Below the pieces are notes generated by a model. It was not told the origin of the DNA. It made no database searches and saw only the letters and a list, made by a program, of their open reading frames with translations. A DNA stretch of 64,000 bases, from contig DIOR01000019.1 of assembly GCA_002423965.1 (NCBI GenBank), forward strand, positions 41,103 to 105,102, written 5' to 3'. The DNA is from Firmicutes bacterium UBA5509 (GTDB lineage: Bacteria > Bacillota > Proteinivoracia > UBA4975). A program made the translations under genes and the position numbers. Numbering within the stretch: position 1 is the first letter of the stretch; each line of letters opens with the position of its first letter. Positions 6,142-59,018 of the stretch are shown in pieces.

Positions 6142-7779
6142 ATGATGAACTTGGCTAGACTTGCTTCCGGTATGCCGGCTATTATCATACTTGACGACAA
6201 GGATATTGTCTGTCATGTCGGCAATAACCTGGAGGAGGTTATTGGGAAAAAAGAAATTATCTTAGGAAAGCCCCTGCCTGAAGAGCTCTTGGGTTGGCGT
6301 CAGGAGAACCCTTGGGAGACAGAATTAAATGGACGTAGCGTCAGTCTTGTCTCTGAAGCTTGGACAGACTATACCCTCTTGCTGATTAGCGATAGCCAGG
6401 GTGCCTATTCTGGTGCCGCCACCATTCTCAACTCTATTGACGAAGGTATTCATGTAGTCAACAAGGATGGTCAGACAGTCTTTTATAACCCCACCATGGC
6501 TAAGATGGAGGGGATGGACTACAATCAGGTAATTAACTCCGATGTCCTGGCCCTCTTCCCTTCCCTGACCCCAGAGACCAGCACTATTCTCCGAGCCCTG
6601 CGCACTAGGGAGCCGGTTTATGACCAAGTGCAGACCTATTATAATAACAAGGGCCAGCGCATCACTTCTTTAAACAGCACCATTCCTTTGTGGAACGGTA
6701 GGGACTTCATCGGCGTGCTGGAAGTGGCCAAGGATGTTACCCGCATGGAGGATTTGGCCCTGAAAGTAGTGGATTTGCAGCAGCGTCTGTACAAGCGCCA
6801 TAAGGGCATGGAGGAGCAGGCTAAACTGTATAATTTCAACGACATTGTCGGCAATAGCCCTGCCCTGCGCCTTCCCTTAGAAATTGCCCGCCGGGCCGCA
6901 AGAACAACTTCACCGGTGCTGATTTACGGCGAAACGGGCACCGGCAAGGAATTGGTTGCCCAAAGTATTCATCAGTTAAGTGATCGGGAAGACAAGCCAT
7001 TTATCGCTCAAAACTGTGCAGCTCTACCCGGCACATTACTAGAAGGGATACTTTTTGGCACAGTAAAGGGCAGCTTTACTGGTGCCATCGACCGCCCCGG
7101 CCTCATTGAACAAGCTGCTGGGGGCACTTTGCTTTTGGACGAAATAAACTCCATGGATATCGACCTTCAGGCCAAACTTCTGCGGGTATTACAGGAACAT
7201 CGGGTGCGCCGGGTGGGAGGTCTAAAGGAAATCACAGTCGATGTCCGCATCATTGCCACCACCAACACCCAACCAAAGGTGGCTGTAAGCCAGGGCAGCA
7301 TTCGCCAAGATTTGTATTATCGCTTGGCGGTGGTCAACATAAATTTGCCTCCGCTAAGCCAGCGCCGGGAGGATATTCCCTTGCTCTGCAGGCACTTTGT
7401 CGATAAGTACAACCGCAAATTTGAATTGGCTATTCAAGGGGTAGCTCCTGAAAGTATGGAAATCTTTTATGCCCATCTTTGGCCGGGAAATGTCAGGGAG
7501 CTGGAGCATGTCATTGAGGGGGCCATGAATATTATTGGGGAAGAAGAATACTACATCGACATCCGCCATTTGCCGCCAAACATGGTTCCCCAACCGCCCA
7601 TGGACCGCAACCTGACTGAACTAGATAACTGCACCCTTCCAGAAGCTGTTGACCTGGTAGAGCGTGGGATGATTAAGCGGGCCATGGGCCAAACAGCGGG
7701 GAATATTACCCGGGCCGCTAGGCTGCTGGGCATTACCCGCCAATCCCTGCAATACAAACTCAGTAAGATCAAAGATTAA
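6142..7779 (+). CDS. rocR: PAS-domain sigma-54-dependent enhancer-binding activator, RocR-like
   Basis: PAS (ILNSIDEGIHVVN), GETGTGKE, NCAA, GSFTGA, LLDEI, WPGNVRELEHVIE, C-terminal Fis HTH (GNITRAARLLGITRQSLQYK); near ornithine/arginine genes. Confidence 0.8.
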   Translation: MMNLARLASGMPAIIILDDKDIVCHVGNNLEEVIGKKEIILGKPLPEELLGWRQENPWETELNGRSVSLVSEAWTDYTLLLISDSQGAYSGAATILNSIDEGIHVVNKDGQTVFYNPTMAKMEGMDYNQVINSDVLALFPSLTPETSTILRALRTREPVYDQVQTYYNNKGQRITSLNSTIPLWNGRDFIGVLEVAKDVTRMEDLALKVVDLQQRLYKRHKGMEEQAKLYNFNDIVGNSPALRLPLEIARRAARTTSPVLIYGETGTGKELVAQSIHQLSDREDKPFIAQNCAALPGTLLEGILFGTVKGSFTGAIDRPGLIEQAAGGTLLLDEINSMDIDLQAKLLRVLQEHRVRRVGGLKEITVDVRIIATTNTQPKVAVSQGSIRQDLYYRLAVVNINLPPLSQRREDIPLLCRHFVDKYNRKFELAIQGVAPESMEIFYAHLWPGNVRELEHVIEGAMNIIGEEEYYIDIRHLPPNMVPQPPMDRNLTELDNCTLPEAVDLVERGMIKRAMGQTAGNITRAARLLGITRQSLQYKLSKIKD

Positions 7780-10200: not shown

Positions 10201-10216
10201 TGGTACGATTTTTGCA
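10201..10216 (+). promoter_or_regulatory. sigma-54 (-24/-12) promoter of the ornithine/arginine cluster
   Basis: TGGTAC-GATTT-TTGCA: GG-N10-GC spacing, one mismatch to TGGCAC-N5-TTGCA, directly before ord. Confidence 0.85.
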
Positions 10217-10240: not shown

Positions 10241-11296
10241 ATGAAAAAAGGCAAAGGAGTGTTGGTTGTGACTGTAAAGGTAATTCATTGGGGCCTTGGC
10301 GCCATGGGTGGCGGCATGGCAAAATTGCTGGACACCAAGACTGGAGTAGAGAGTATTGCTGCAATAGATGCAGACCCTAATAAAAAAGGCAAGACCTTGG
10401 CCCAGCTCCTGGATGTTAAAAGCCAGGCTATCATTAATGACGATGCTGCAGAGGTGTTAAAAACTGATGCCCATGTGGTTATCATTGCCACTGGCTCCTT
10501 TACCCGGGAAGTCTTTCCCCAAATTGAACAGGCAGTTAAGGCTAAGAAAAACGTCATCTGCATTGCTGAGGAGATGTCCTTCCCACGGCAGCAGGAGCCC
10601 GAACTGGGCGAAAAGATCCATAAGCTAGCCCTTGAGAACAATGTCACTGTCTTAGGCACTGGAATTAACCCCGGCTTCGTCCTAGACCTACTGATAGTGG
10701 CCATGACAGGGGTTTGCTACGACATTAAGGAAATCAAAGCTTCTCGTATCAATGACCTCTCTCCCTTTGGTCCCACTGTTATGAAGACCCAAGGAGTGGG
10801 AACTACTTTGGAAGCATTTAACGCCGGAGTTGAAGCCGGTACCATTGTGGGCCATGTGGGTTTCCCCGAATCTATGGCCATGATTTCTTCCGCCCTTGGC
10901 TGGGAATTGGATGAAATTCGCCAGACCAAAGAACCTATTATAGCCAAGAAATATAGAGAAACTCCCCATGTCAAGGTTGAGCCTGGCATGGTGGCCGGTT
11001 GTCGCCATATCGCCTATGGCATTAAAGACGGCAAGACTTTGATTACTTTGATTCATCCCCAGCAAGTTCGTCCGGAGAATGAGGGAGTGGAGACCGGCGA
11101 CTTTATCGAAATTATTGGTGAACCAGGCATCCACTTAGCTATTCAGCCGGAGATTCCTGGCGGCATTGGCACCATTGCCATTGCAGTTAACTCAATTCCC
11201 AATGTTATCAATGCCGAACCCGGCTTAGTTAACATGACTCAGCTCCCTGTTCCACCAGCACTGTTGGCAGACGTCCGTTCATTAATCAAAAAATAG
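10241..11296 (+). CDS. ord: 2,4-diaminopentanoate dehydrogenase
   Basis: WGLGAMG Rossmann motif, LGTGINPGFVLD, VGHVGFPES, GGIGTIA; alternative start GTG 10268 with GGAG RBS. Confidence 0.92.
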   Translation: MKKGKGVLVVTVKVIHWGLGAMGGGMAKLLDTKTGVESIAAIDADPNKKGKTLAQLLDVKSQAIINDDAAEVLKTDAHVVIIATGSFTREVFPQIEQAVKAKKNVICIAEEMSFPRQQEPELGEKIHKLALENNVTVLGTGINPGFVLDLLIVAMTGVCYDIKEIKASRINDLSPFGPTVMKTQGVGTTLEAFNAGVEAGTIVGHVGFPESMAMISSALGWELDEIRQTKEPIIAKKYRETPHVKVEPGMVAGCRHIAYGIKDGKTLITLIHPQQVRPENEGVETGDFIEIIGEPGIHLAIQPEIPGGIGTIAIAVNSIPNVINAEPGLVNMTQLPVPPALLADVRSLIKK

Positions 11297-11307
11297 GAGG
11301 GATTTAT

Positions 11308-11616
11308 GTGATTGACAAAGCGGTGCCAAAGGGCACTTGGGTTCAAATCCACCAACAAATTCTGTCTCCTGATCAACGAGCTCCTCAGGTACCCGCAGAT
11401 ACTGCCAAGGTTCCCCTGGTTATGGTTACCAAAGGATTTCTAGAAAAAGACGGCAGCAGGAATGAAAATGTTGCAGTAAAGACACTGTGTGGCCGCGTTG
11501 TTGAAGGTAAGTTAATCAATGTTCTACCTCGTTTCTCCCATGACTTTGGCAATGCTGTTCCCGAACTCTTGGCCATCGGGCCACGGGTCCGTGCTTTGCT
11601 AGAAGGAGGAGAGTAG
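11308..11616 (+). CDS. ortA: 2-amino-4-ketopentanoate thiolase alpha subunit
   Basis: WVQIHQQIL..DQRAPQVP.DT.KVPL.M..KGFL, T..GR..EG, HDFG. Confidence 0.92.
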   Translation: MIDKAVPKGTWVQIHQQILSPDQRAPQVPADTAKVPLVMVTKGFLEKDGSRNENVAVKTLCGRVVEGKLINVLPRFSHDFGNAVPELLAIGPRVRALLEGGE

Positions 11617-11618
11617 AA

Positions 11619-13022
11619 ATGAAAGATAATAGCTATCAGGCAGTAATGGCCCGCAGCAATGAGATAATGAAAAAAGCCATCGGCATGGATTACAGTCAAT
11701 TTGAACGTGGGCAGCTGGCCTTTGATTACCAAGCAATGATGACCGAAGCCGGATACAGTCTGGAAGAAGTCATCGCCGTCCAAAGGGAGACTGGAGTGGG
11801 AAACACCCCTCTTTATGAGCTGAAGAATATTACAAAGCTTGCCCGTATTAACGCTCCCAAGGGAAAAGGCGCCCGCATCTTCCTTAAGGACGAAGCTTCA
11901 AACCCCTCTGGCAGCTTTAAAGCCCGCCGGGCTGCCTTGGCGGTCTACCATGCAGCCAAGAACGGCTACAAAGGTGTCGTCGCCGCCACCAGCGGCAACT
12001 ATGGCGCTGCAGTGGCCTCCCAAGCTGCCATCCGCGGCCTCAAGAGCATAATTGTCCAGGAGGCCTTTGACAGCAAGGGAATCTACCAGCCCGAAATCGA
12101 AGAAAAGGGTCGGGCCTGCGAAGCCTATGGTTCCGAAGTGCTGCAACTCTCCGTTGGCCCCGAACTGTTTTACGTCTTCCTTCGGGTCCTTGAGGATACT
12201 GGATTCTTTAACGCATCTCTTTACACTCCCTACGCCATTGCCGGGGTAGAGACCCTGGGTTGGGAAATTGTCCAACAGCTTCAGGACCAATACTCTCTAA
12301 AACCCGACATGGTTGTAGTCACTAATGCCGGCGGTGGTAACCTTACCGGCACCGCCAGGGGCCTACGTAAAGCCGGTTCCGACGCATTGGTAGTGGGTGC
12401 CAGTGTTGACCTTAAGGGCCTCCACATGGCCAGCGACCAAGACTTTAACCGAAAATCATTTACCACCGGTCATACCGGTTTTGGCGTTCCCTTTACCACA
12501 TGGCCTGACAGGGCTGATGTTCCCAGAAACGCCGCCCGCCCCCTGCGCTATTTAGACAGATACGTCACCATTACCCAGGGTGAAGCTTTCTATGTCACCG
12601 AGCTGTTGGCTCAGCTTGAGGGTCTTGAGCGGGGTCCTGCCGGCAATGTCTCCTTAGCAGCTGCCGTGGCCCTGGCCCGGGAGTTGGATGAGGACCAGAT
12701 CCTGGTTGTCCAGGAAACGGAATACACTGGTGCAGGTAAACATGTCAACGCTCAACTAAGTTTTGCTCGCAAAAATGGCATTGAGATCTCCGTTGGCAAC
12801 CCAGCTGACAGTGTCCCCGGCCAGTCCATTATTTTGCCGGAACATCCCAGCCAGATTCAAGCAGTGGATATGGACATGGATGATTTACGCCGTTCCTACC
12901 TGAAACATGCCCTGGGGATTTTAAATGGCGCAAAACCACAGCCTGAAGATATCAGCTTCCTGGCAGAGGACTGTCGCGTCACCCCTGAATTTATCGAATC
13001 TTTTGCCCAAGGAGTGAAATAA
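11619..13022 (+). CDS. ortB: 2-amino-4-ketopentanoate thiolase beta subunit (PLP)
   Basis: KDEASNPSGSFKARRA, ATSGNYGAA, NAGGGNLTGTA, QETEYTGAGKH. Confidence 0.93.
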   Translation: MKDNSYQAVMARSNEIMKKAIGMDYSQFERGQLAFDYQAMMTEAGYSLEEVIAVQRETGVGNTPLYELKNITKLARINAPKGKGARIFLKDEASNPSGSFKARRAALAVYHAAKNGYKGVVAATSGNYGAAVASQAAIRGLKSIIVQEAFDSKGIYQPEIEEKGRACEAYGSEVLQLSVGPELFYVFLRVLEDTGFFNASLYTPYAIAGVETLGWEIVQQLQDQYSLKPDMVVVTNAGGGNLTGTARGLRKAGSDALVVGASVDLKGLHMASDQDFNRKSFTTGHTGFGVPFTTWPDRADVPRNAARPLRYLDRYVTITQGEAFYVTELLAQLEGLERGPAGNVSLAAAVALARELDEDQILVVQETEYTGAGKHVNAQLSFARKNGIEISVGNPADSVPGQSIILPEHPSQIQAVDMDMDDLRRSYLKHALGILNGAKPQPEDISFLAEDCRVTPEFIESFAQGVK

Positions 13023-13387
13023 TGGAAAGAAAAGATGACTTTAAAGACCGTCGCAAGCACCTGGACGGACTCAGCGATGAGCAGCTTAACAAACGCTTCT
13101 GGGACTTACTGGACCAGGTGGTAGACCCCTTGGCAGATTTGGCCATGACCCATACTTCACCGGCTATTGAACGCTCAGTCTTATTGAGAATGGGCTTTAG
13201 CAGCCTGGAGGCCAAGTCAATCGTGGAGAAATGCCAGCAGTTTGGCCTTCTGGGCAAAGGTGTCGGCAATGTCGTCCTCAAGGCTTCTGCTATTTCCGGG
13301 CGTCCCTATCGGGAAGCCGGTCTGGAATTGGCCCAAGGCAATCTTTGGTCCCAAGTCGAAGCAGAGTTGGCGGGAGGTGCAAAATAA
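13022..13387 (+). CDS. oraS: D-ornithine 4,5-aminomutase small subunit
   Basis: ERKDDF..RRKHL, RFW.L, THTSPAIERSVLLRMGFSSLEAK, GLLGKGVG. Confidence 0.93.
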   Translation: MERKDDFKDRRKHLDGLSDEQLNKRFWDLLDQVVDPLADLAMTHTSPAIERSVLLRMGFSSLEAKSIVEKCQQFGLLGKGVGNVVLKASAISGRPYREAGLELAQGNLWSQVEAELAGGAK

Positions 13388-15573
13388 TGGACGTAAATAA
13401 AAAGCTCAATATACCCGAACTGCTAAAGGATTTGGAAAGCTATCGCCCCCGCCGCAAAGGCTGGACCTGGAGGAAGTCCCTGCCCCGGGATACCCAGTTA
13501 GGGCCCTTTAAGTTCAAGCAAATTTCCAAGTCCCTAAAAAATTATGTGCCTCTGCCGGCGGCCAAGTATTTTGGCAATATCGACCCCCAACCGGAATGCA
13601 TTATCACCACCGAAATCGCCTCCGGGCGTTTTGAAGACGATATCCGCCGGATGCGCATGGCCGCCTGGCATGGCGCAGACCACATTATGGTCATTCGCAC
13701 CGCCGGTCAAAGCCATTATGACGGCTTGATTGAAGGTTCCCCAGAGGGAATCGGTGGCGTGCCCATCACCCGTAAACAGCTACGTGCCTCGCGCAAGGCC
13801 CTAGACATAATTGAAGACGAAGTTGGCCGTCCAATTAACTTCCACTCATACGTCAGCGGCGTTGCCGGCCCCGACATTGCCGTGCTCTTCGCTGAAGAAG
13901 GAGTGAACGGTGCTCATCAGGACCCCCAATACAACGTCCTTTATCGCAATGTCAACATGATCCGTTCCTTTGTGGATGCCGCAGAAGCCAAGAAACTGAT
14001 GGCCAGCGTCGACATGCTGCAAATTGACGGTGCCCATAATGCCAACGCCACTGCCCGGGAAGCATGGCTAGTAATGCCGGAACTCTTGGTTCAGCACGGC
14101 ATTAACTGTGCCTTCTCCCTAAAGGCCGGCATGAAAAAGGAATATATCAGCCTGTCTACCGTTCCCCCAACTGCTACGCCTGCGCCGGAGTTGTACTTGG
14201 ACCTCCCCTATGCCGTCGCTTTACGGGAACTGTTCCAGGGTTACAAGATGCGGGCCCAGATGAACTCTAAGTACATGGAGGCAGATCCTCGGGAAGCCAC
14301 CGTCAACCATACAATGAACCTGTTGATCTCCCGGTTGACCAGTGTGGATATCCAGAGCACCATTACCCCCGACGAAGGCCGCAACGTACCTTGGCACTAT
14401 AACAATATTGCTGCCACCAACACTGCCAAGCAGATGCTTATTGGCCTAGATGGCATCAAGGACTTAGTTGAAATTAAAAAAGACGGTCCCCTTCGGGACA
14501 AAGTCCGGGAGCTAAAGGAACGGGCAATCCTCTTCCTTGAAGAGATGGTAGAAGTCGGCGGCTATTTCAAGGCTGTAGAAGCAGGCTTTTTTGTAGACTC
14601 AGCTCAATACCCTGCTCGCAACTACGACGGCATCGTCCGTCATGCCGACGGAGGCATTGGTCCGGATTCAGTCTTCCTCCGGGATAAGGATTATTTCGCC
14701 CCTGTATGTCAGCACTACGGCAATAACAACCTGCCAGTAGGCACCAAAAAGGCCTGCGACCTCATCCAAGGCTGCACCCTCTGTCATCCAGAAAAAATCA
14801 TCTATATTGATGAACTGGATGAAGAGGACAATGCCGCTAAGCGCTTAGAGGTAATGGCAGACCATCGAGAAAAGGGCCTACTTCGCCCAGAAGTAGAATG
14901 GTATGCTGATGGTGTAATTAGCATGCAGCTCTTCTATCCCACCAGCGCCCGGGTGGCAGAATACGCCGCTTTGGCCATGGCGGAGAAGATGGGAATCACC
15001 GAGGCAGAGATTATTAACCGCCTACCCATGCATCCTTCTGAGGGAACCTTCCTGGAACTAAAGGGCAAAGTCGCCATTGACATTGATCCAGCCAAATTAG
15101 ACATTCCCGAAGAAGTACCCCTTCTCACCGAGGAAGAAATCCGCGCCGACATCAAGGCAAAGCCCATGACCATTGTTGGGGCAACTGTTGGCCAGGACGA
15201 ACACTCAGTGGGGATGAGAGAAATCATAGACATCAAGCACGGTGGCATCGAAGGCTTTGGCATTACCTGTCACTACCTAGGCACCTCTGTTTCTTTAGAA
15301 AAGGTAGTAGACGCCGCCATCGAAACCGCTGCTGACGCCATTCTCATCAGCACCATCATCACCCATGCTGATATTCACCGCATCAACATGCGCAAACTCC
15401 ACGACCTATGCAAGGAAAAGGGCATTCGGGACAAGATCATCTTGATTTCCGGAGGCACCCAGGTTACCAATGACATCGCCGTGGAAGAAGGCATGGATGC
15501 CGGCTTTGGCCGGGGAACTCACGGCCACGCCGTAGCCAGCTTCCTGGTGGATAAACGCCGCACCCTGAAATAA
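13387..15573 (+). CDS. oraE: D-ornithine 4,5-aminomutase large subunit (AdoCbl/PLP)
   Basis: EIASGRFEDDIRRMRMAAWHGADHIMVIRT, DEH cobalamin motif and IDIKHGGIE PLP lysine; start moved to ATG 13387 overlapping oraS stop. Confidence 0.95.
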   Translation: MDVNKKLNIPELLKDLESYRPRRKGWTWRKSLPRDTQLGPFKFKQISKSLKNYVPLPAAKYFGNIDPQPECIITTEIASGRFEDDIRRMRMAAWHGADHIMVIRTAGQSHYDGLIEGSPEGIGGVPITRKQLRASRKALDIIEDEVGRPINFHSYVSGVAGPDIAVLFAEEGVNGAHQDPQYNVLYRNVNMIRSFVDAAEAKKLMASVDMLQIDGAHNANATAREAWLVMPELLVQHGINCAFSLKAGMKKEYISLSTVPPTATPAPELYLDLPYAVALRELFQGYKMRAQMNSKYMEADPREATVNHTMNLLISRLTSVDIQSTITPDEGRNVPWHYNNIAATNTAKQMLIGLDGIKDLVEIKKDGPLRDKVRELKERAILFLEEMVEVGGYFKAVEAGFFVDSAQYPARNYDGIVRHADGGIGPDSVFLRDKDYFAPVCQHYGNNNLPVGTKKACDLIQGCTLCHPEKIIYIDELDEEDNAAKRLEVMADHREKGLLRPEVEWYADGVISMQLFYPTSARVAEYAALAMAEKMGITEAEIINRLPMHPSEGTFLELKGKVAIDIDPAKLDIPEEVPLLTEEEIRADIKAKPMTIVGATVGQDEHSVGMREIIDIKHGGIEGFGITCHYLGTSVSLEKVVDAAIETAADAILISTIITHADIHRINMRKLHDLCKEKGIRDKIILISGGTQVTNDIAVEEGMDAGFGRGTHGHAVASFLVDKRRTLK

Positions 15574-15584
15574 GAAGGTGTAGT

Positions 15585-16961
15585 ATGAAACTGGAGATAA
15601 TTGTGGCGGAAATAGGAAGCACAACTACGGTGGTCAGTGGCTTTTCCGATTTGGGCACCGCCCCGGTCCTGGTGGGCCAGGGACAGGGTCCTACCACAGT
15701 TGAAGCCGGAGATGTTCGCCGGGGGCTAACACTGGCCCTGGCGGACCTCCGGGCCAATTTAGGATGTGACCAATTGGAATGGCAGCATATTTACGCCTGT
15801 AGTAGTGCTGCCGGCGGCCTGAAGATGACCGTCCACGGTCTGGTCTACGACATGACCGCCCGGGCTGCCCGGGAAGCAGCTTTAGGTGCCGGGGCCGTCC
15901 TCCATCAAGTTACCGCTGGAGAGATTTCCCCCACCGATCTTGAAAAGACCCGCCAGATTTCCCCTAATATCATTTTGCTAGCTGGGGGAGTAGATTATGG
16001 CGAGCGCAAAATTATTCTGGACAACTCCCGTAAGCTAGCCACACTGGACCTGCCCATTCCCCTGATCTACGCCGGCAATGTGGCAATTCAGGAGGAAATA
16101 GCTGAAATCTTCACTGGCACCCGCTTTCTTCTGGAAATTGTGGAAAATGTCTATCCACACATTGATGAACTAAATATCGAGCCTACCCGAAAGGCAATTC
16201 AAAAGGCATTTGAGGAACATATTATCCACGCCCCGGGAATGGGTCAGATTCGGGAATTGGTAGATGGCCCCATTCAGCCGGTGCCTGGAGCTGTCCTCAA
16301 CGCCGCTATTACTCTCTATGGCAGGTTGGGGGATTTGCTGGTCTTTGATGTAGGAGGGGCCACCACGGATTTACATTCCGTTACCCCGGGTTCAGACGAA
16401 GTTAATGCTATCCTCATCAGCCCTGAGCCGCTAGCTAAGCGGACAGTGGAGGGAGATTTGGGAGTCTACATCAACGCTGCCAACCTTATGGGTTTGGCCG
16501 GCAGGGAAGATCTCGCTGCCACCCTGGGTAGGATAGACCTTGATGAGTTAATTGTCCCCATTCCAAAAACCGCTGCAGAAATCGCCTTTGCCGAAGCACT
16601 AGCGGCTAAAGCTGTCAGCACCGCCCTAGAGCGCCATGCCGGATCCATTCGCTATATGTATGGACCCGGGGGCAGGCTGAAAATTGCCCGGGGCAAAGAC
16701 CTTACTCAGGTGAAATATGTCATCGGCACAGGTGGTGCCCTTACACGGCTTCCCAAGGGCAAAGAACTTTTGGCGGTGGGCTTATTATCTCGGAATCCTG
16801 ACTTTCTCGGGCCATCCCGGGAGGTCAAGGTCCTCATTGACCGCCACTATATAATGGCAGCCGCTGGCGTATTGGCCAGCAGTCACCCCCAGGCCGCCAT
16901 TACCTTGATGTTAAAATCTTTGGACTTGGAGGGGTTTGATGTATCCCAAACTAATAATTGA
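15585..16961 (+). CDS. GlmL/MutL-like reactivating factor for ornithine aminomutase
   Basis: VAEIGSTTT, CSSAAGGLKM, LLAGGVDYG, DVGGATTD, KRTVEGDLG; conserved position between oraE and orr. Confidence 0.85.
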   Translation: MKLEIIVAEIGSTTTVVSGFSDLGTAPVLVGQGQGPTTVEAGDVRRGLTLALADLRANLGCDQLEWQHIYACSSAAGGLKMTVHGLVYDMTARAAREAALGAGAVLHQVTAGEISPTDLEKTRQISPNIILLAGGVDYGERKIILDNSRKLATLDLPIPLIYAGNVAIQEEIAEIFTGTRFLLEIVENVYPHIDELNIEPTRKAIQKAFEEHIIHAPGMGQIRELVDGPIQPVPGAVLNAAITLYGRLGDLLVFDVGGATTDLHSVTPGSDEVNAILISPEPLAKRTVEGDLGVYINAANLMGLAGREDLAATLGRIDLDELIVPIPKTAAEIAFAEALAAKAVSTALERHAGSIRYMYGPGGRLKIARGKDLTQVKYVIGTGGALTRLPKGKELLAVGLLSRNPDFLGPSREVKVLIDRHYIMAAAGVLASSHPQAAITLMLKSLDLEGFDVSQTNN

Positions 16962-18000
16962 CCTAAAGAAGCTCCAGGAAAACTCTCAGCTTCTGGCCAA
17001 TCTTTGCTTAGCAGAGAACATCCAGCCTGTCGCAGTAACAAAGGTCACCTGCGGTGACCCCAAGGTGGCTCAGGCCATGCTGGCTGGAGGCATCTCCATG
17101 CTGGCGGAGTCCCGGGTGGAGAATGCCCGTCGCCTACAGGCCGCAGGCATTGATGCTCCCCTTCTTTTGCTGCGATTACCCATGCTCAGCCAAGTTGAGG
17201 CAGTGGTGGAGCTTTTCCAATGCAGTCTCAACTCTGAGCTAAGTACAATCCGGGCCCTTAATGCTGCTGCCGCCAAAGTAGATGCTGTCCACGATATCAT
17301 CCTTATGGTGGATTTAGGTGACCTACGGGAAGGGATAATGCCTCATGAGTTGGAGGACATGGTTCTTGCCATTGCCGGACTAAAGAACATTCGCTTACTG
17401 GGCCTTGGCACTAACCTTACCTGCTACGGTGGTGTAATCCCCACCTTAGAAAACCTTGGTCAGCTACTGGAATATAACCGCCAAGCTGAGAAACTCTATT
17501 CCCAGCCCCTACCGGTGATTTCCGGGGGAAATTCCAGTAGCCTCCCCTTGCTTTTACAGGGACAGCTACCCCCAGTCACCCAGCTGCGCCTAGGTGAGAG
17601 CATAGTACTTGGTCGCGAAACCGTTGATCGCCAGCCTATTCCCGGCGCGCATCTGGATTGCTTTCAAATCCAGGCCGAGATTATTGAAATTAGGGAAAAG
17701 CCCTCAGTGCCCATCGGCAAAATCGGCCAGGACGCCTTTGGAGGCAGTCCTGTCTTTGAGGACCGGGGGACCCATTTACGGGCAATCCTAGCCCTTGGCC
17801 GTCAAGACGTTGTCGTCGATGGTCTCGAGACCCCTCAGGGAATAGATATACTGGGGGCCAGCAGCGACCACTTGCTGCTGGACGTGACAAACTATCCTAA
17901 ACCCTTGGCGGTGGGGGATATCCTGACCTTTACCCCTGGTTATGGCTCCCTCTTGGCTGCCATGACTTCCGCTTTTGTTAACAAAGAATACCGCCAGTAA
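16939..18000 (+). CDS. orr: Ornithine racemase (alanine racemase fold)
   Basis: VTKV PLP lysine, MVDLGDLREG, TNLTCYG, SGGNSSS, LRLGES, GASSDH. Confidence 0.9.
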   Translation: MYPKLIIDLKKLQENSQLLANLCLAENIQPVAVTKVTCGDPKVAQAMLAGGISMLAESRVENARRLQAAGIDAPLLLLRLPMLSQVEAVVELFQCSLNSELSTIRALNAAAAKVDAVHDIILMVDLGDLREGIMPHELEDMVLAIAGLKNIRLLGLGTNLTCYGGVIPTLENLGQLLEYNRQAEKLYSQPLPVISGGNSSSLPLLLQGQLPPVTQLRLGESIVLGRETVDRQPIPGAHLDCFQIQAEIIEIREKPSVPIGKIGQDAFGGSPVFEDRGTHLRAILALGRQDVVVDGLETPQGIDILGASSDHLLLDVTNYPKPLAVGDILTFTPGYGSLLAAMTSAFVNKEYRQ

Positions 18001-18015
18001 TCGGAGGCGATTGTT

Positions 18016-19383
18016 ATGAGCCCAATAGTATTTGCCGGCTTTGCTCCACATCCTCCTCTGCTAATTGAGGGTGTAGGAGATGAACACAAGCCGGAGGCGG
18101 CCCAAACAGATGAGGCATATCGGCAGCTGGCTGCCCGCCTGGTAGAAACCCAGCCAAACACAGTGATAGTCGTGACTCCCCACGGGCCGGTATTCTCAGA
18201 TGCCTATACCATACCGGGCTGGGACACTTTGCACGGGGACTTTACCCCTTTTGGCTCTGCAGTCTCCATGACCTGGGAGGCAAATACAGGTTACAGCCGC
18301 CAGGCAGAAACTCTAGCTGCAAAAAAGGGGTTGCCCTTGGTTGTGGTTAATTCTCGTCAGTTGGCCAGCCATCGCTACAGCACCGGCTTGGACCACGGAA
18401 CCATGGTTCCCCTGTGGTATTTACAGGCTGCTGGCTGGAAGGGGAAGGTAGTATGCATTCGCATCGGCGGCCTTCCTCCACGCCAATGCTATGAGATTGG
18501 TAAGGTTCTGGCTGAGACCTCTGGGGACGAAAAAATCGCCCTTATTGCCAGCGGCGACATGTCTCATTGTCTCAAGGAAAATGGTCCTTCACCTTACAAC
18601 CCCGTGGGGCTAGAATTTGATGAGACTGTTGTCGCCGCCTTAGAAAAAAGCGATTATCAGGCAGTGCTGGCTATTCCTCCAGAGTTTCGCCAGCGAGCGG
18701 CTGAATGCGGCTGGCGCCCCTTAGTCACTTTACTGGGGGCTTTAGATGGCAGAGAAAGCAAAAGCCAGGTTCTCAGCTATCAGGGACCCTTTGGGGTAGG
18801 ATACCTTGTTGCCATCTTTACACTGGAAGACGGAGAAAGGCAGGGGTTAACTTTTCCACTGAATACCCCGGAAGATGCCAGCATCTACACCCAGCTGGCC
18901 AGAAAGGCAATTCGCCAGTACCTGATAAAGGAAGAGACTATAGAGATAGAATCTCCCGAGCCTCCCTTGGACCGTCCCCAAGCCGCTTTTGTCAGCTTAA
19001 AATTGGACGATCAACTTCGGGGTTGCATCGGCACTATTGAGCCAAAGTATGAACATTTAGGGGCAGAGATCGTTGCCAATGCCATCGCCGCAGCCACCAC
19101 CGATCCCCGCTTTGACAGGGTCACCATTTCCGATCTGGAGCAGTTATCCATCAGTGTAGACCTTTTGTCGGAGCCTGTACCAGCAACTTACTCACAGCTG
19201 GATCCCTCTAAGCTAGGCTTAATTGCCCAGTGGCGAGGGCGCAGGGGCTTGCTACTGCCTGATTTATCTGGAGTCGATACCCCGGAAGAGCAGCTGGAAA
19301 TAGCCCTGCGCAAGGGGGGCATTCCCAAGGAAAAGGCTAGGGAGGCCAAGCTATACACCTTTACAGTTGAAAGGCATTACTAA
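18016..19383 (+). CDS. amrA: AmmeMemoRadiSam system protein: N-terminal LigB/MEMO-like domain fused to C-terminal AMMECR1 domain
   Basis: PHPP, TPHG, LDHG, SGDMSH, ECG in N-half; AFVSL...LRGCIGT, AATTDPRF, VDLLS, GLLLPDL in C-half. Confidence 0.88.
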   Translation: MSPIVFAGFAPHPPLLIEGVGDEHKPEAAQTDEAYRQLAARLVETQPNTVIVVTPHGPVFSDAYTIPGWDTLHGDFTPFGSAVSMTWEANTGYSRQAETLAAKKGLPLVVVNSRQLASHRYSTGLDHGTMVPLWYLQAAGWKGKVVCIRIGGLPPRQCYEIGKVLAETSGDEKIALIASGDMSHCLKENGPSPYNPVGLEFDETVVAALEKSDYQAVLAIPPEFRQRAAECGWRPLVTLLGALDGRESKSQVLSYQGPFGVGYLVAIFTLEDGERQGLTFPLNTPEDASIYTQLARKAIRQYLIKEETIEIESPEPPLDRPQAAFVSLKLDDQLRGCIGTIEPKYEHLGAEIVANAIAAATTDPRFDRVTISDLEQLSISVDLLSEPVPATYSQLDPSKLGLIAQWRGRRGLLLPDLSGVDTPEEQLEIALRKGGIPKEKAREAKLYTFTVERHY

Positions 19384-19384
19384 G

Positions 19385-20377
19385 ATGCAAGAAGCCCTGT
19401 ACTGGGAAAAGGTAGGAGGGCAAGTTCATTGCCTTCTTTGCCCCCATGACTGCACAATCCCTGCCCAGGGGAGCGGCCGTTGCCAAGTGCGCAAAAATAT
19501 TGGCGGTGTCCTATACACCCTGAACTACGGGGAAGTCAGCGGTCTGGCCCTAGATCCCATTGAAAAAAAGCCCCTCTACCACTTTTACCCCGGCAGCCTG
19601 ATCCTCTCGGTGGGCTCCAGAGGGTGTAATCTTAACTGCGGCTTTTGCCAAAACTGGCCCAGTGTCCAGGGAGAATATCCTATGGAGACACTGAATCCGT
19701 CAGAACTGGTGGACTTGGCAGAGGCAACAAAGAAACGAGGAAACATTGGCATAGCCTTTACCTATACCGAACCCCTGGTCTGGTATGAGTATGTCCTGGC
19801 AGGAGCAAAAGAGGCCCGCAGGCGGGGACTGAAGACCGTCCTGGTTACTAACGGCTTCGTCAGCCTCCAGCCATGGCTGGAACTCCTTGACACCATAGAC
19901 GCAGTTAATATCGACCTTAAGGCCTTTAACACCGATTTTTACCGGGATAATTGTAAGGGCAGTCTGGAGCCAGTCCAGGAGGCCATTGCCGCTGCAGTTG
20001 GCAAATGCCATGTGGAGGTCACCACTCTCCTAATCCCAGGAGAGAACTCCGGGAAAGAGGAAATTGACCGACTCAGCACATTTCTGGCCGGACTCAATCC
20101 CCAGATTCCCCTGCACCTGTCCCGCTACCATCCAGCCCGACAGTGGCAGCAGCCTGCCACCCCACCGGAACTGATACGGGACTTGGCAGAAATAGCCCGG
20201 CAAGAGCTTGAGTTCGTCTATACCGGAAACCTGCCAGGCTCATACTCTGCCGGAACTTATTGCCCTCAGTGTGGACAGCTTCTAATTCAACGGGGCACTT
20301 CCCCCGGAGTGTTGTTATCCGGGAATAGCTGTCCCCGCTGTAAATACAGACTAAGTATCCCAGCATGCAAGGAGTGA
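19385..20377 (+). CDS. amrS: AmmeMemoRadiSam system radical SAM enzyme
   Basis: N-terminal CLLCPHDC...GRC, LDPIEKKPLYHFYPG, CNLNCGFCQN, FTYTEP, C-terminal CPQC/CPRC. Confidence 0.92.
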   Translation: MQEALYWEKVGGQVHCLLCPHDCTIPAQGSGRCQVRKNIGGVLYTLNYGEVSGLALDPIEKKPLYHFYPGSLILSVGSRGCNLNCGFCQNWPSVQGEYPMETLNPSELVDLAEATKKRGNIGIAFTYTEPLVWYEYVLAGAKEARRRGLKTVLVTNGFVSLQPWLELLDTIDAVNIDLKAFNTDFYRDNCKGSLEPVQEAIAAAVGKCHVEVTTLLIPGENSGKEEIDRLSTFLAGLNPQIPLHLSRYHPARQWQQPATPPELIRDLAEIARQELEFVYTGNLPGSYSAGTYCPQCGQLLIQRGTSPGVLLSGNSCPRCKYRLSIPACKE

Positions 20378-20381
20378 ATCT

Positions 20382-21311
20382 ATGAACAAGCGAGTTGTAG
20401 TGGCCTTAGGTGGAAACGCCATCCTCCAGCCCAAACAGGCTGGAACAGCTGAAGTGCAGTTTAAAAACGTTATCAACACCTGTATTCAGTTGGCGGACCT
20501 CATTAAGGTGGGTTACCAGTTGGTCATTACCCACGGCAATGGGCCCCAGGTGGGCAATATTCTATTGCAAAATGAAGAGGCCAAGGACAAGATTCCGCCA
20601 ATGCCCTTAGATGTATGCGGTTCTCAGACCCAGGGGTTCATTGGCTATATGATCCAGCAGTCCATGCAAAACCTGCTTCCCCAGCGCCATGTGGGTACAA
20701 TTCTCACCCAGGTCTTAGTAGATTCTGGCGACAGCGCCTTTCAAAATCCCACAAAGCCCATCGGCCCCTTTTATACACAGCAGCAGGCTAAGGAACTCAT
20801 AGCCCAAAAGGGATATACTATGGTTGAAGACAGCGGCCGCGGATGGCGCAGGGTGGTTCCCTCCCCCAATCCAATTAGCATTGTGGAAAAAGATCTCATT
20901 CAGGCCCTCCTGGACAAGGATGCAATTGTTATCGCCGCAGGCGGCGGTGGCATCCCAGTGGTTAAGGACAGCCAGGGTCAGCTCAGCGGCATTGAGGCCG
21001 TGATTGACAAGGACCTGGCAGGAGCGCGCTTGGCTGGGGACGTGGGTGCAGACATCCTCTTAATTCTCACCGATGTAGAGGCCGTAGCCACCAATTGGGG
21101 CAAACCGGATCAAAAATTCCTCCACCATCTGAGCCTGGAAGAAGCCAAAGAATATGCTGCTCAGGGTCAATTCAAAGCCGGCAGCATGGGGCCAAAGGTG
21201 GAGGCAGCTCTGCGCTTTGTTGAGCAAGGGGGAGAGAAGGCAATTATAGTCTCCCTGAACAAGGCAGCAGCTGCTTTACAAGGGACAGCAGGTACAATAA
21301 TTTTAAAATAA
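20382..21311 (+). CDS. arcC: Carbamate kinase
   Basis: VVALGGNA, THGNGPQVG, PTKPIGPF, WRRVVPSP, VIDKD, GSMGPKV. Confidence 0.96.
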   Translation: MNKRVVVALGGNAILQPKQAGTAEVQFKNVINTCIQLADLIKVGYQLVITHGNGPQVGNILLQNEEAKDKIPPMPLDVCGSQTQGFIGYMIQQSMQNLLPQRHVGTILTQVLVDSGDSAFQNPTKPIGPFYTQQQAKELIAQKGYTMVEDSGRGWRRVVPSPNPISIVEKDLIQALLDKDAIVIAAGGGGIPVVKDSQGQLSGIEAVIDKDLAGARLAGDVGADILLILTDVEAVATNWGKPDQKFLHHLSLEEAKEYAAQGQFKAGSMGPKVEAALRFVEQGGEKAIIVSLNKAAAALQGTAGTIILK

Positions 21312-21341
21312 ATTTTTCCTTAAGGAAGGGAGTAGATCGAT

Positions 21342-22328
21342 TTGGCAGTTAATCTCAAAGGCAGGCATTTTCTCACTCTGTTGGACTTTAGTCCCGAAGA
21401 AATCAAGTACCTCTTGGACTTGGCCGCTGAGCTGAAAAGCCTAAAGTATGCTGGCGTCCGTCCCCGTAACTTGGAAGGCAAGAACATTGCCCTCATCTTT
21501 GAAAAGACCTCCACCCGCACCCGCTGCGCCTTTATGGTCGCGGCAGCTGATGAAGGCGCCCACGCCGACTATCTGGGCAAGGACGACATCCAGCTAGGGA
21601 AAAAGGAATCTGTGGCCGATACCGCACGGGTTCTCGGTCGCATGTTTGACGGCATCGAGTTTAGGGGCTTTGCCCATGAAACCGTCGAGACCCTGGCCAA
21701 GTATTCCGGCGTCCCTGTCTGGAACGGCCTCACCGATCAGTACCATCCCACTCAAATCTTGGCAGACTTCCTCACCATCATTGAACAAAAGGGCTACCTC
21801 CGGGGTATTAAATTTGCCTATGTAGGTGATGGTCGCAATAACATGGCCAACTCCCTGATGATCGGTGCCGCAAAGATGGGCTTAGACATGAGGGTTGTCA
21901 GTCCCAAGGACTTATTCCCTGAAGAGAGCCTTGTTAAAAAGGTTAAGGAAATTGCCGCTGAAAACGGCGCCAAAATTACCATTACCGATTCCGCCAAAGA
22001 CGGAGTTGCTGGAGCCGATGTAATATACTCCGACGTCTGGGTCAGCATGGGGGAAGAAGATCTCTTTGCCCAGCGCATCGCCCAACTCAAGCCCTACCAA
22101 ATTAACATGGACATGATTAAGATGGCTGCTCCTGACGTTACTTTCCTCCACTGTCTGCCTGCATTCCACGACCGCAACACCATCATCGGCGAGCAGATTT
22201 TCCAAGAGTTTGGACTTTCCGAAATGGAAGTAACCGACGAAGTCTTTGAAAGCAAGCATTCCAAGGCCTTTGACCAGGCAGAAAACCGCCTACACACCAT
22301 CAAGGCCGTCATGGTGGCCACCTTATAA
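21342..22328 (+). CDS. arcB: Ornithine carbamoyltransferase (likely catabolic by context)
   Basis: [38 protein letters not shown]; TTG start. Confidence 0.93.
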
Positions 22329-22445
22329 ATCGGAAGCAAGAAGCCCGATCTCCGGGCGTGGGTTCTGACAAGGTTTTAAATCAATGGGCTACTTACCGGC
22401 ACTGCCGATAAGAAATAAATTTAAACTAGGTTAGGAGGATTTATC

Positions 22446-23756
22446 GTGTCAATCAAAGTTATTATTATGGGAGCTGCAGGTCGTGACTTTCACAACTTCA
22501 ACGTCTACTTCCGTGACAATGAAGCATACGACGTAGTAGCTTTTACCGCCACCCAAATCCCCGATATTGAGGGAAGGATGTATCCCCCGGAACTCGCTGG
22601 GAAATTGTATCCCAACGGCATTCCCATCCATGCAGAAGAAGAACTCACTGACTTAATCAAGAAACACGATGTCCAGCAAGTAATCTTCGCTTACAGTGAT
22701 GTGCCCTATCCCGTCCTTATGAATAAGGCCGCCGCAGTGCAGGCCGCGGGAGCGGACTTCCGTTTTATGGGCCCCAACACCACGATGCTTAAATCTAGCA
22801 AGCCGGTTATCGCTGTTACCGCAATCCGCACTGGCGTTGGCAAAAGCCAGACGACTCGTAAAGTTTGTGACATCCTCAAGGCTATGGGAAAAAAAGTTGT
22901 TGCCATTCGCCATCCCATGCCCTACGGAGATTTAGCAAAACAAGCTTGCCAGCGCTTTGCTACCTATGCCGACCTGGATAAGCATAAATGCACCATTGAA
23001 GAGCGTGAAGAGTACGAACCCCATATTGACCGCGGCATCATAGTCTATGCCGGTGTCGACTATGGCCAAATCCTTGCAGAAGCAGAAAAAGAAGCCGACA
23101 TCATCGTCTGGGACGGCGGAAACAACGACTTCTCCTTCTACCACGCTGACCTCTACATCACCCTGGTTGACCCCCATCGCCCCGGTCACGAAGTTGGTTA
23201 TCATCCCGGCGAAGTCAACCTACGTATGGCTGACGTAGTTATCATCAACAAGATGGAAACTGCTTCCGCCGACGGCATCAACATTGTCCGCAAGAACATC
23301 GCCAAATGCGCTCCCGATGCAATAGTCATCGAAGGCGCATCCCCAATCAGCGTCAAAGACGGCCACAAGATCAAAGGCAAGAAGGTCTTGGTCATTGAAG
23401 ACGGCCCCACCCTTACCCACGGCGAAATGACTTATGGTGCCGGCACCGTCGCCGCTCGCAAATTTGGCGCAGCTGAACTTATTGACCCCCGTCCTTGGGC
23501 AGTTGGAAGCATCAAGGATACCTTTGATAAGTATACTCACCTAACCAATATTCTCCCCGCCATGGGTTACGGCGACAAGCAAATTCGTGAACTGGAAAAG
23601 ACCATCGACGCTATTGACTGCGACTTAGTTATCGCGGCTACTCCTATTGACCTTACTCGTATTCTCAAGATCAAGCGGCCCGCAGTGCGCGTTGGTTATG
23701 AACTCCAGGAAATCGGCACCCCCACCCTTGACGATGTCCTGGCCAAATTTAAGTAA
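22446..23756 (+). CDS. arcE: Arginine synthetase-like P-loop protein (cyclic 2,3-DPG synthetase/GTPase-annotated family)
   Basis: MGAAGRDFHNFN, FTATQIPDIEGR, RTGVGKSQT, HPMPYGDL, TIEEREEYEP, WDGGNND, EDGPTLTHG match the ArcE family as I recall it; adjacent to arcB and arcC. Confidence 0.8.
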   Translation: MSIKVIIMGAAGRDFHNFNVYFRDNEAYDVVAFTATQIPDIEGRMYPPELAGKLYPNGIPIHAEEELTDLIKKHDVQQVIFAYSDVPYPVLMNKAAAVQAAGADFRFMGPNTTMLKSSKPVIAVTAIRTGVGKSQTTRKVCDILKAMGKKVVAIRHPMPYGDLAKQACQRFATYADLDKHKCTIEEREEYEPHIDRGIIVYAGVDYGQILAEAEKEADIIVWDGGNNDFSFYHADLYITLVDPHRPGHEVGYHPGEVNLRMADVVIINKMETASADGINIVRKNIAKCAPDAIVIEGASPISVKDGHKIKGKKVLVIEDGPTLTHGEMTYGAGTVAARKFGAAELIDPRPWAVGSIKDTFDKYTHLTNILPAMGYGDKQIRELEKTIDAIDCDLVIAATPIDLTRILKIKRPAVRVGYELQEIGTPTLDDVLAKFK

Positions 23757-23761
23757 AACCG

Positions 23762-23790
23762 AAAGGGAGCCCACGGGCTCCCTTCCCTTT
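23762..23790 (+). terminator. Terminator closing the arginine/ornithine cluster
   Basis: AGGGAGCC-cacg-GGCTCCCT followed by a pyrimidine tract. Confidence 0.7.
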
Positions 23791-24149: not shown

Positions 24150-25562
24150 TTGGATTTATTAAATAGGCAGGGGGGAATAATTCTGGAACAGTTGCTGAAA
24201 CATGGCCTAGATGCAGCTTTTGCCGCAGGTGCAGATTATGTTGAATTAACTGGAGTTGATGTGGAAGAACAGAAGTGGAACATAGAAAACGCTCGCCCTT
24301 CCTGCAGGAGAAACAGGGAGGCAGGAATTTCCCTACGCCTGATTGCAGCTGGCCGTTGGGGGTTTGCTGCTGGACCTGCCACCAACAAGCCTGCCGTCAG
24401 CCAGTTGGTCAAGGCAGCCTTAGAGGGTGCAAATGTTCAGCCTTCCAATCGCCATCCTGTTGAACTTAGCACGGCATTTCCCGCTACTGGCAGTTGGGCG
24501 GGTGCTTGTGCCCAGGACCCCTTTACTATATCTAACGCTGAGCTGTTAGAAATGCTAGAAGAAACAGATCAGGCTATGACTGTGGAAGGCATTGAGCAAC
24601 GTCGGGCATGGCTTCACTTTCGCAGGGAACATCGCCATTATCTTAATAGCGAAGGCAGCTCAAATCAGCAAGCCTTTACTCTATCCGGCGGGGGCATTAC
24701 TGCCCAAGCTTTTGGGGAGGGAGAAGTCCAGCAGCGGAGTTGGCCATCTCCCCAAGGAAGTTATGCCGGGAAGGGCTATGAATATATTAAAGAACTGGAC
24801 CTTCCGGGACATAGTCAACAAATTGCTCAGGAAGCCTTTGCTTTGACGAAGGCCCCTGCCTGTCCCCAGGAGGTCATGGATGTCATTCTCCTTGGACCCA
24901 TGCTGGCCACTCAAATTCACTATACCCTTGGGGTTAGGCTACAACTAGGCATGCTGGATTCCTTGGATCTCCAGCTGACCTCCCAGCTGAGGCTGGGCTC
25001 GCCGGCCCTGTCCCTGGGTGCTGACGCCTCTCTTCCCGGTGGCGCCGGCAGTTTCGGGTTTGATGCAGAGGGTGTCAAAGCTCAGTCTTTCCCCCTTATA
25101 GAAAGGGGCCGCGTTGTCAACTATCTCTCTGGCAGGGAAACGGCGGCAGAAACCGGGCGTTTCAGTGGCGGGTGCATGCGTTCTCCCAGCCTTTACTCTC
25201 CTCCCGTCCCCTGGATGACCAATGTAATCATGGGGACCGAGACTTGCAGCCTGGGGGAATTGGCTGGAGATATTAAGCGGGGAATACTCATGGATACCCC
25301 CCGATCCTATACAGTCAATCCCCAACTCAGTGGCTTTGCTGCTCAATCTGAAATCGGCTGGATGATTGAAGACGGAGTAATAACTCATATGGTGAAAAAC
25401 CCCTTTTACAGAGGCAATTCAAAGGCCTTTTGGAGCGGCTGCGACGCTGCCGCTGCTATCTCTCATCAAAAGTACTATGGGATAATGGACAAGGGGATTG
25501 CCGTTGGCCATTCCGTGGTGCCTGTGCGGATCCGTAGCGTGAGAGTAGGTGATAGGCGGTGA
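24150..25562 (+). CDS. tldD: TldD family protein with degenerate metal-binding motif
   Basis: GISLRL...GRWGFA, GSFGFDAEGVKAQ, LIERG, MTN, GILM; expected HExxGH reads HYTLGV; start codon uncertain. Confidence 0.75.
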   Translation: MDLLNRQGGIILEQLLKHGLDAAFAAGADYVELTGVDVEEQKWNIENARPSCRRNREAGISLRLIAAGRWGFAAGPATNKPAVSQLVKAALEGANVQPSNRHPVELSTAFPATGSWAGACAQDPFTISNAELLEMLEETDQAMTVEGIEQRRAWLHFRREHRHYLNSEGSSNQQAFTLSGGGITAQAFGEGEVQQRSWPSPQGSYAGKGYEYIKELDLPGHSQQIAQEAFALTKAPACPQEVMDVILLGPMLATQIHYTLGVRLQLGMLDSLDLQLTSQLRLGSPALSLGADASLPGGAGSFGFDAEGVKAQSFPLIERGRVVNYLSGRETAAETGRFSGGCMRSPSLYSPPVPWMTNVIMGTETCSLGELAGDIKRGILMDTPRSYTVNPQLSGFAAQSEIGWMIEDGVITHMVKNPFYRGNSKAFWSGCDAAAAISHQKYYGIMDKGIAVGHSVVPVRIRSVRVGDRR

Positions 25563-58864: not shown

Positions 58865-58886
58865 AATATCAAGCGGAACCAACCTT

Positions 58887-58996
58887 GCCTTCTTTCATCC
58901 AGACTATACTGTCGGTTTTTGGAATTTCACCAAATCAGCACTTGCGCGCTCGCGGACTATACCGCCGGTCGGGAATTTCACCCTGCCCTGAAGACA
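58887..58996 (-). ncRNA. FMN riboswitch (RFN element)
   Basis: Minus strand GTCTTCAGGGCAGGGTGAAATTCCCGACCGGCGGTATAGTCCGCGAG...GATTTGGTGAAATTCCAAAAACCGACAGTATAGTCTGGATGAAAGAAGGC. Confidence 0.95.
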
Positions 58997-59018
58997 CCAG
59001 TATTTAGTTGTCAGTGAT

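Follow-up and report, generated by a model that had tools for sequence, protein, structure and literature searches.

A putative ATP-forming arginine synthetase gene, arcE, closing an ornithine-degradation operon in Firmicutes bacterium UBA5509

The arcC-arcB-arcE locus and its 436-residue P-loop protein

The stretch of DNA analyzed here (the window) comprises 64,000 nucleotides of contig DIOR01000019.1 (positions 41,103 to 105,102, forward strand; contig C27 of the genome) from Firmicutes bacterium UBA5509 (GCA_002423965.1; Bacillota, Proteinivoracia), whose assembly of 2.12 Mb in 29 contigs is 98.9% complete. Window positions 20382-23756 hold three intact open reading frames (ORFs), all on the forward strand: arcC (20382..21311), encoding a carbamate kinase of 309 amino acids (TIGR00746, 435 bits, cut-off 358); arcB (21342..22328), encoding a catabolic ornithine carbamoyltransferase (OTC) of 328 amino acids (NF003286, 532 bits, cut-off 515; PF00185 and PF02729); and a gene for a 436-residue P-loop protein (22446..23756), labeled P0003, which is named here arcE, for arginine synthetase (ATP-forming arginine deimination), from homology, a tree, motifs and an AlphaFold2 model. 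The arcE ORF starts with GTG and has an AGGAGG ribosome-binding site 7 nt upstream, and its product carries a Walker-A-like P-loop, TGVGKS, at residues 129-134. An earlier reading of this DNA from its letters and ORFs (the sequence-only reading) had given the three ORFs exactly these positions, as the re-read sequence and the TIGR00746 and NF003286 matches for arcC and arcB bear out, and had pointed out that the window contains no arcA. The absence extends to the whole genome, where the search for arginine deiminase (ADI) that it had called for returned 0 matches to PF02274 and NF002381; arcC, arcB and arcE are thus contiguous in a genome without ADI.

ArcE is known as TK2200 of Thermococcus kodakarensis, which interconverts arginine, ADP and Pi with citrulline, ATP and NH3 (Michimori, Yokooji & Atomi, PNAS 2024, PMC11032458). 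As the ArcE reference we used P0410, a protein from a Thermococci metagenome-assembled genome, as a proxy for TK2200. Its gene was located by scanning a genome collection with the 22-nt gene-specific part of the primers ExTK2200_R and dTK2200inR (PMC13260591, Supplementary Tables 2 and 3), which gave a single match, on a 4.4-kb contig of an uncultured Thermococci archaeon. The gene (L021:2399-3745, minus strand) encodes 448 amino acids, and its 3′ end is identical to the 22-nt primer part. Its N-terminus, MAEKKRKRVVI, shares 9 of 11 residues with the primer-encoded MAEKKKKRVLI of TK2200, and its C-terminus, KNCEKLKK, equals the primer-encoded TK2200 end in 8 of 8 residues. Since the 33-nt 5′ TK2200 primer has no match on this contig within 3 mismatches, P0410 belongs to a close relative and not to strain KOD1.

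The window protein is 66% identical to this proxy (287 of 432 residues, 617 bits) with 0 gaps, that is, over essentially the full length of both proteins (436 and 448 amino acids), in line with full-length orthology to TK2200 as judged by this proxy. Identity to its close homologs goes up to 95%; those that carry a genus name (Thermosediminibacter, Natranaerobius, Koleobacter, and Dethiobacter) lie at about 71-73%, with 73% for the Thermosediminibacter oceani protein, and the homologs from Hyperthermus, Pyrodictium, and Ignisphaera at 45-48%. Hyperthermus and Pyrodictium (45-46%) are both named as arcE carriers by the discoverers (PMC11032458). In a tree inferred by maximum likelihood from 41 members of the family, the Thermococci ArcE is the sister of the Bacillota clade to which the window protein belongs (SH-aLRT 98), and the crenarchaeal proteins branch as a clade of their own. 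An alignment of 23 family members from bacteria and archaea has 79 invariant columns, including those of the motifs GAxGRDxH, TGxGKS, RHPMxY, TxEExEE, WDGGNND, RP, EDxPTxTHG and GY, and the window protein keeps all 79.

The Thermococci ArcE is far nearer to the Bacillota proteins (66%, sister clades) than the crenarchaeal ArcE is to the window protein (about 45%), a pattern in the sequences that suggests inter-domain gene transfer between Bacillota and Thermococcales.

The AlphaFold2 model of the window protein (pLDDT 92.3, pTM 0.91) predicts a two-domain P-loop enzyme. A Foldseek search with this model returned as best match the cyclic 2,3-diphosphoglycerate synthetase (cDPGS) structure 8ORU (E = 8e-17, 15% identity, TM about 0.46), and also the LpxK structure 4EHY (E = 4e-8), the analog reported for TK2200p by the discoverers of ArcE. 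The model thus has the P-loop NTPase fold with the LpxK-like ATP-Mg pocket described for TK2200p, and the two proteins share LpxK and cDPGS as nearest structures.

In every testable respect of sequence, fold, phylogeny, and gene context, the window protein agrees with the ArcE family. Membership in the TK2200-type family, which the sequence-only reading had claimed, is supported by the gapless 66% identity to the Thermococci protein, by the branch support of 98, by the weak similarity to cDPGS that is discussed below and by the lack of ADI; the alignment and phylogeny that it had proposed, with the Thermococci proxy on the ArcE side, place the protein with ArcE and not with cDPGS. From these comparisons, the ORF at 22446-23756 very probably encodes an ortholog of ArcE that would carry out the first step of an arginine fermentation running through ArcB, ArcC, and the ornithine operon described next.

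The operon upstream of arcE

With arcE as its final gene, an operon of sigma-54 type stretches over about 13.5 kb, in which the genes ord-ortAB-oraSE-or4-orr-AmmeMemoRadiSam-arcC-arcB-arcE follow each other on the same strand with short spacers. The ornithine degradation set is complete, with all seven genes contiguous and in canonical order, and five products (Ord, OrtA, OrtB, OraE, and Or-4) score above their equivalog cut-offs. It starts with ord for 2,4-diaminopentanoate dehydrogenase (10241..11296; NF040740, 497 bits, cut-off 400; PF19328), followed by ortA for a subunit of the 2-amino-4-oxopentanoate thiolase (11308..11616; NF040739, 117.5 bits, cut-off 70) and ortB for the pyridoxal phosphate (PLP) subunit of this thiolase (11619..13022; NF040741, 817 bits, cut-off 550). 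The next ORF (13022..13387, 121 amino acids) matches no NCBIfam model and is called oraS-like, for the small subunit of D-ornithine 4,5-aminomutase, by position only, a canonical position that is kept in relatives. The large, B12-dependent subunit is encoded by oraE (13387..15573; NF040743, 1340 bits, cut-off 800), the start of which is placed at Met53 of the longest ORF because the NF040743 match begins there. The set is completed by the gene for the GlmL-related ornithine degradation protein Or-4 (15585..16961; NF040744, 640 bits, cut-off 600) and by an orr-like ornithine racemase gene (16936..18000; PF01168), the product of which scores 433 bits on NF040742, below the cut-off of 480. An OraE paralog (27-33% identity) is encoded elsewhere in the genome (C24:102215-104051, minus strand); it is likely, from sequence similarity, a lysine 5,6-aminomutase, which suggests that the organism also ferments lysine.

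This gene order (ord, ortA, ortB, oraS, oraE, or-4, orr) is that of the oxidative L-ornithine degradation cluster known from Clostridium sticklandii and its relatives (NF040739-NF040744). Unlike that cluster, the one in the window also takes in an AmmeMemoRadiSam pair and arcC-arcB-arcE, and therefore one transcription unit would carry arginine through to alanine and acetyl-CoA. The same layout, from ord to orr and on through the AmmeMemoRadiSam pair and arcC-arcB-arcE, recurs in 2 more members of the genus and in 1 genome that represents a different family within the order, with variants in others.

As for its regulation, a sigma-54-type -24/-12 promoter near the consensus (TGGTAC-N5-TTGCA) can be read in the sequence at 10201..10216 (+), 25 nt before ord, and may put the operon under sigma-54 control. 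A candidate for the activator is encoded further upstream (6142..7779, +), a protein with a PAS domain (PAS_4), a sigma-54 AAA+ domain (Sigma54_activat, 210 bits) and an HTH_8 domain, that is, an enhancer-binding protein of PrdR/RocR-like architecture, whose best NCBIfam match is PrdR with 373 bits, below the cut-off. At the other end, a 9-bp GC-rich hairpin directly follows the arcE stop codon (23763..23784, +) and resembles a terminator. It is a weak candidate for the end of the operon, because the overall scan for promoters and terminators did not rise above shuffled expectation and because a contig from an RNA library reads through the hairpin, from arcE into the region downstream. That region (24150-26878) holds a TldD/PmbA-like gene pair, with weak scores on the curated TldD/PmbA models. 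An Rfam scan found nothing in the cluster, its sole match being an FMN riboswitch (RF00050, 113.6 bits) at 58883-58999 on the minus strand.

Contigs of at least 99% identity from two metatranscriptome runs (food fermentation and mud) span the whole cluster including arcE. Sequences near-identical to 20382-23756 are also found in metagenomes from fermentation, pit-mud-like "mud", landfill, wastewater, and manure, besides the two metatranscriptomes.

The pair between orr and arcC comprises a gene for a fused Memo/LigB-like and AMMECR1 protein (AmmeMemoRadiSam A/B; 18016..19383, +; TIGR04335, 129.5 bits; TIGR04336, 32 bits; PF01871 and PF02900) and one for the AmmeMemoRadiSam radical SAM enzyme (19367..20377, +; TIGR04337, 281 bits, cut-off 220). 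Its position (18016-20377) is kept in four relatives, and the radical SAM gene also on a truncated fifth contig, together from three families of the order. The place in this operon could serve as a functional lead for the AmmeMemoRadiSam system.

Distribution of ArcE and arginine deiminase

In the small class to which the organism belongs (16 genomes), ArcE is found in 9 genomes, and in its own order it is present in every genome except one 86%-complete genome of the same genus. ADI is missing from the genus, with 0 of 5 of its genomes matching PF02274 or NF002381, and is present in all 11 other genomes of the class, among them five sister genomes that carry ArcE as well. The sequence-only reading had described arcE as standing in place of arcA. 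Since sister genomes keep both arcA and arcE, this arrangement is best explained if the genus lost an arcA that its ancestor had carried together with arcE.

Two kinds of neighborhood among the relatives may be added. In one of the five sister genomes, from another family of the order (G015), the arrangement is arcC-arcB-arcA-arcE, with a bona fide arcA (L020:3672-4868, minus strand; NF002381, 424 bits). In two others of the five, which belong to the organism's own family, a gene for a 547-residue M20 ArgE/DapE-type deacylase on the opposite strand lies beside arcE (L017:14828-16471 and L018:14586-16232, both minus strand) and takes the place of arcB, or in one of them of arcB and arcC. This deacylase may be a RocB-like citrulline hydrolase or an N-acyl-ornithine hydrolase.

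For the phylum, we used an even sample of 151 genomes from 126 genera, in which the ArcE orthologs are at 59% identity or more. ArcE occurs in 38 of the 151 genomes and 31 of the 126 genera, and ADI in 17 genomes; 3 genomes have both, where 4.3 would be expected by chance (Fisher p = 0.56). In this sample ArcE without ADI is the common state among ArcE carriers, and the two enzymes are not detectably exclusive. The discoverers reported that ArcA and ArcE largely complement each other (PMC11032458), a picture that is tempered by the co-occurrence of the two in 3 genomes of the phylum sample and in the five sister genomes considered below.

Direction, substrate, and the predicted arginine fermentation

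Arginine biosynthesis is incomplete in the genome: argC and argJ were not found; the sole match for argG (argininosuccinate synthetase) is a 21.6-bit match to an MnmA-like protein; and the sole match for carB, that is, for carbamoyl-phosphate synthetase (CPS), is a biotin carboxylase. Because argG, argC, argJ, and CPS are missing, ArcE most likely works catabolically, from arginine, ADP, and Pi to citrulline, ATP, and NH3. An argH-like lyase (TIGR00838, 381 bits) is encoded on another contig (C16:59455-64172, minus strand); its operon also has genes for a YfcC-type "basic amino acid antiporter", an isochorismatase-like hydrolase, and a regulator of the GntR type. An ArgG/ArgH route was rejected for this match, whose neighbors are unrelated and for which no argG was found on the contig tail or in the genome.

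The biosynthetic direction, with ArcE forming arginine from citrulline, ATP, and NH3 in place of ArgG and ArgH, was proposed by Michimori et al. for some bacteria without argininosuccinate synthetase (PMC11032458). The reaction is reversible and near equilibrium according to that paper, and the present genome does lack argG and has an OTC gene adjoining arcE. With no route to ornithine or to carbamoyl phosphate in the genome, this role is unlikely; moreover, the other genes of the operon that arcE closes serve ornithine degradation or encode carbamate kinase, and the synthesis of arginine from a substrate that is being burnt would be futile. We rejected it on these grounds.

A second alternative concerns the substrate: a member of the ArcE family might act on another guanidino/ureido pair, such as agmatine/carbamoylputrescine or homoarginine, or perform some other ATP-coupled amidotransfer. 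That relatives have ArcA besides ArcE, and that the specificity residues of ArcE are undefined, would leave room for it. The gapless 66% identity to the ortholog of the characterized enzyme and the sister position in the tree make such a function improbable, as does the neighborhood: the gene adjoins those for carbamate kinase and an OTC that scores 532 bits on the ornithine model but falls to 280 bits, under the cut-off of 500, on that for putrescine carbamoyltransferase, and ADI, which could supply that OTC, is missing from the genome.

The last alternative is the database name itself. Close homologs are listed publicly as "predicted GTPase", "cyclic 2,3-diphosphoglycerate synthase" or "cobalamin synthesis protein P47K", so that the sequence-only reading was right to expect mis-annotation as GTPase or cDPGS. 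Neither NCBIfam 20.0 nor Pfam has a model for the ArcE family and, because of this, neither can be used to decide membership: the window protein has no match above threshold in them, only weak CbiA/CobW P-loop matches below the gathering scores, and the Thermococci ArcE likewise matches no family model. With cDPGS (Methanothermus fervidus, PDB 8ORU/8ORK) the window protein shares a distant two-domain P-loop architecture. Solved cDPGS sequences reach only 17-33 bits in single-sequence comparison with it (17.3 bits and E = 0.015 in phmmer for the M. fervidus 8ORU protein, which is no close similarity) and 59-75 bits, over part of their length, against a profile of the ArcE family. The ArcE motifs have no counterpart in the aligned cDPGS segments, where for example the position of WDGGNND reads ILEGSGA. 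Clustering with true cDPGS, which the sequence-only reading had named as grounds for giving up its proposal, was looked at and is not seen. Cyclic 2,3-diphosphoglycerate is a thermoprotectant in hyperthermophilic methanogens, whereas the present genome was sourced from samples of fermentation, mud, and landfill. Substrate and biology differ as well. Thus, in spite of the names of the homologs, the cDPGS fold as nearest solved structure and the weak CobW/CbiA matches, it is hardly conceivable that the protein is a cDPGS, a generic GTPase, or a CobW-type metallochaperone, given 17-33 bits and 15% identity to solved cDPGS and the lack there of the ArcE-invariant RHPMxY, TxEExEE, WDGGNND, and EDxPTxTHG, and we rejected this annotation.

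Some points weigh against the assignment as a catabolic ArcE. The comparison is to a Thermococci proxy, which can be matched to TK2200 itself only at the ends covered by the primers, and in the literature searched no characterized bacterial ArcE was found. The conserved motifs cannot be linked to specificity, because experiments have yet to assign residues of ArcE to catalysis or substrate binding. Five sister genomes have ArcA together with ArcE, one of them with arcA beside arcE, and therefore ArcE is not simply a substitute for ADI in this lineage. Finally, the RNA evidence consists of assembled contigs, which may contain DNA.

For the preferred assignment as an arginine-degrading ArcE, the following pathway can be predicted. 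By homology, ArcE would convert L-arginine, ADP, and Pi reversibly into L-citrulline, ATP, and NH3; ArcB would split citrulline by phosphorolysis into ornithine and carbamoyl phosphate; and ArcC would use carbamoyl phosphate and ADP to form ATP, CO2, and NH3, which gives a predicted two ATP per arginine for ArcE and ArcC together. Ornithine would then be racemized by Orr and rearranged by OraSE to 2,4-diaminopentanoate, which Ord would oxidize and from which OrtAB would release alanine and acetyl-CoA. A third ATP from substrate-level phosphorylation would be possible because an acetate kinase gene (ackA) is present elsewhere in the genome.

Compared with the classical arcABC(D) pathway, the predicted one likewise turns arginine overall into ornithine, NH3, and CO2, with the same ArcB and ArcC and with clustered genes. 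It differs in that ArcA, which acts by irreversible hydrolysis and forms no ATP, is missing from the organism's own genome and from 5 of 5 genomes of the genus, with the unrelated P-loop protein ArcE in its stead and a predicted yield of 2 ATP per arginine instead of 1. T. kodakarensis resembles the present organism in having arcB, arcC, and de novo pyrimidine genes but neither arcA nor CPS. There, however, arcE (TK2200), arcB (TK0871), and arcC (TK2158) are scattered and ornithine is converted to proline, whereas here arcC-arcB-arcE ends an operon that would take ornithine to alanine and acetyl-CoA, and the host, instead of a hyperthermophilic archaeon, is a bacterium from fermentation, mud, and landfill settings.

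The pyrimidine genes form an uninterrupted pyrB-pyrC-pyrK-pyrD-pyrF-pyrE operon without carAB (C6:46138-51235, minus strand). In T. kodakarensis, which has no CPS, carbamoyl phosphate for pyrimidines was shown in 2026 to come from arginine (Front Microbiol 2026, PMC13260591). With a pyr operon and no CPS here as there, this organism may likewise draw it from arginine via ArcE and ArcB, a possible second role for the pair; the source would be either ArcB, with citrulline supplied by ArcE, or the reverse reaction of ArcC. On a more speculative view, which we hold only tentatively and which would parallel T. kodakarensis, ArcE and ArcB may be both the entry to a three-ATP arginine fermentation (ArcE, ArcC, and AckA) and the sole supply of carbamoyl phosphate to the pyrBCKDFE pathway, arginine being fuel and obligatory pyrimidine precursor at once. 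Sister genera with arcA beside arcE would then be two-geared, using ADI at high energy charge and ArcE when ADP accumulates.

Much of the setting is already known from the discoverers of ArcE, who described arcE homologs as widespread in bacteria including Bacillota (Clostridium and Thermosediminibacter among those named), as lying near arcB or arcC in some genomes, and as complementary to arcA (PMC11032458). Of the bacterial instance put forward by the sequence-only reading, the family assignment therefore stands and the novelty does not, a bacterial ArcE beside arcB and arcC having been described before (PMC11032458). What is modestly new is that arcE is joined to an ornithine fermentation operon, that arcA loss is specific to the genus, that the pyrimidine situation without CPS occurs in a bacterium, and that Thermococci and Bacillota ArcE are so close.

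ArcE activity has so far been tested in one hyperthermophilic archaeon, and the locus offers a clean bacterial candidate for the first test outside the archaea, with an intact operon, metatranscriptome contigs that cover it, and a genome without ADI, argG, argC, argJ, and CPS. It is also useful as an annotation correction, since for want of a model in NCBIfam 20.0 and Pfam about a quarter of the sampled genomes of the phylum carry this gene under the name "GTPase" or "cDPGS", and metabolic reconstructions of such amino-acid fermenters will therefore overlook their arginine catabolism. Over the deimination and carbamate-kinase steps, ArcE would raise the ATP gained per arginine fermented from 1 to 2.

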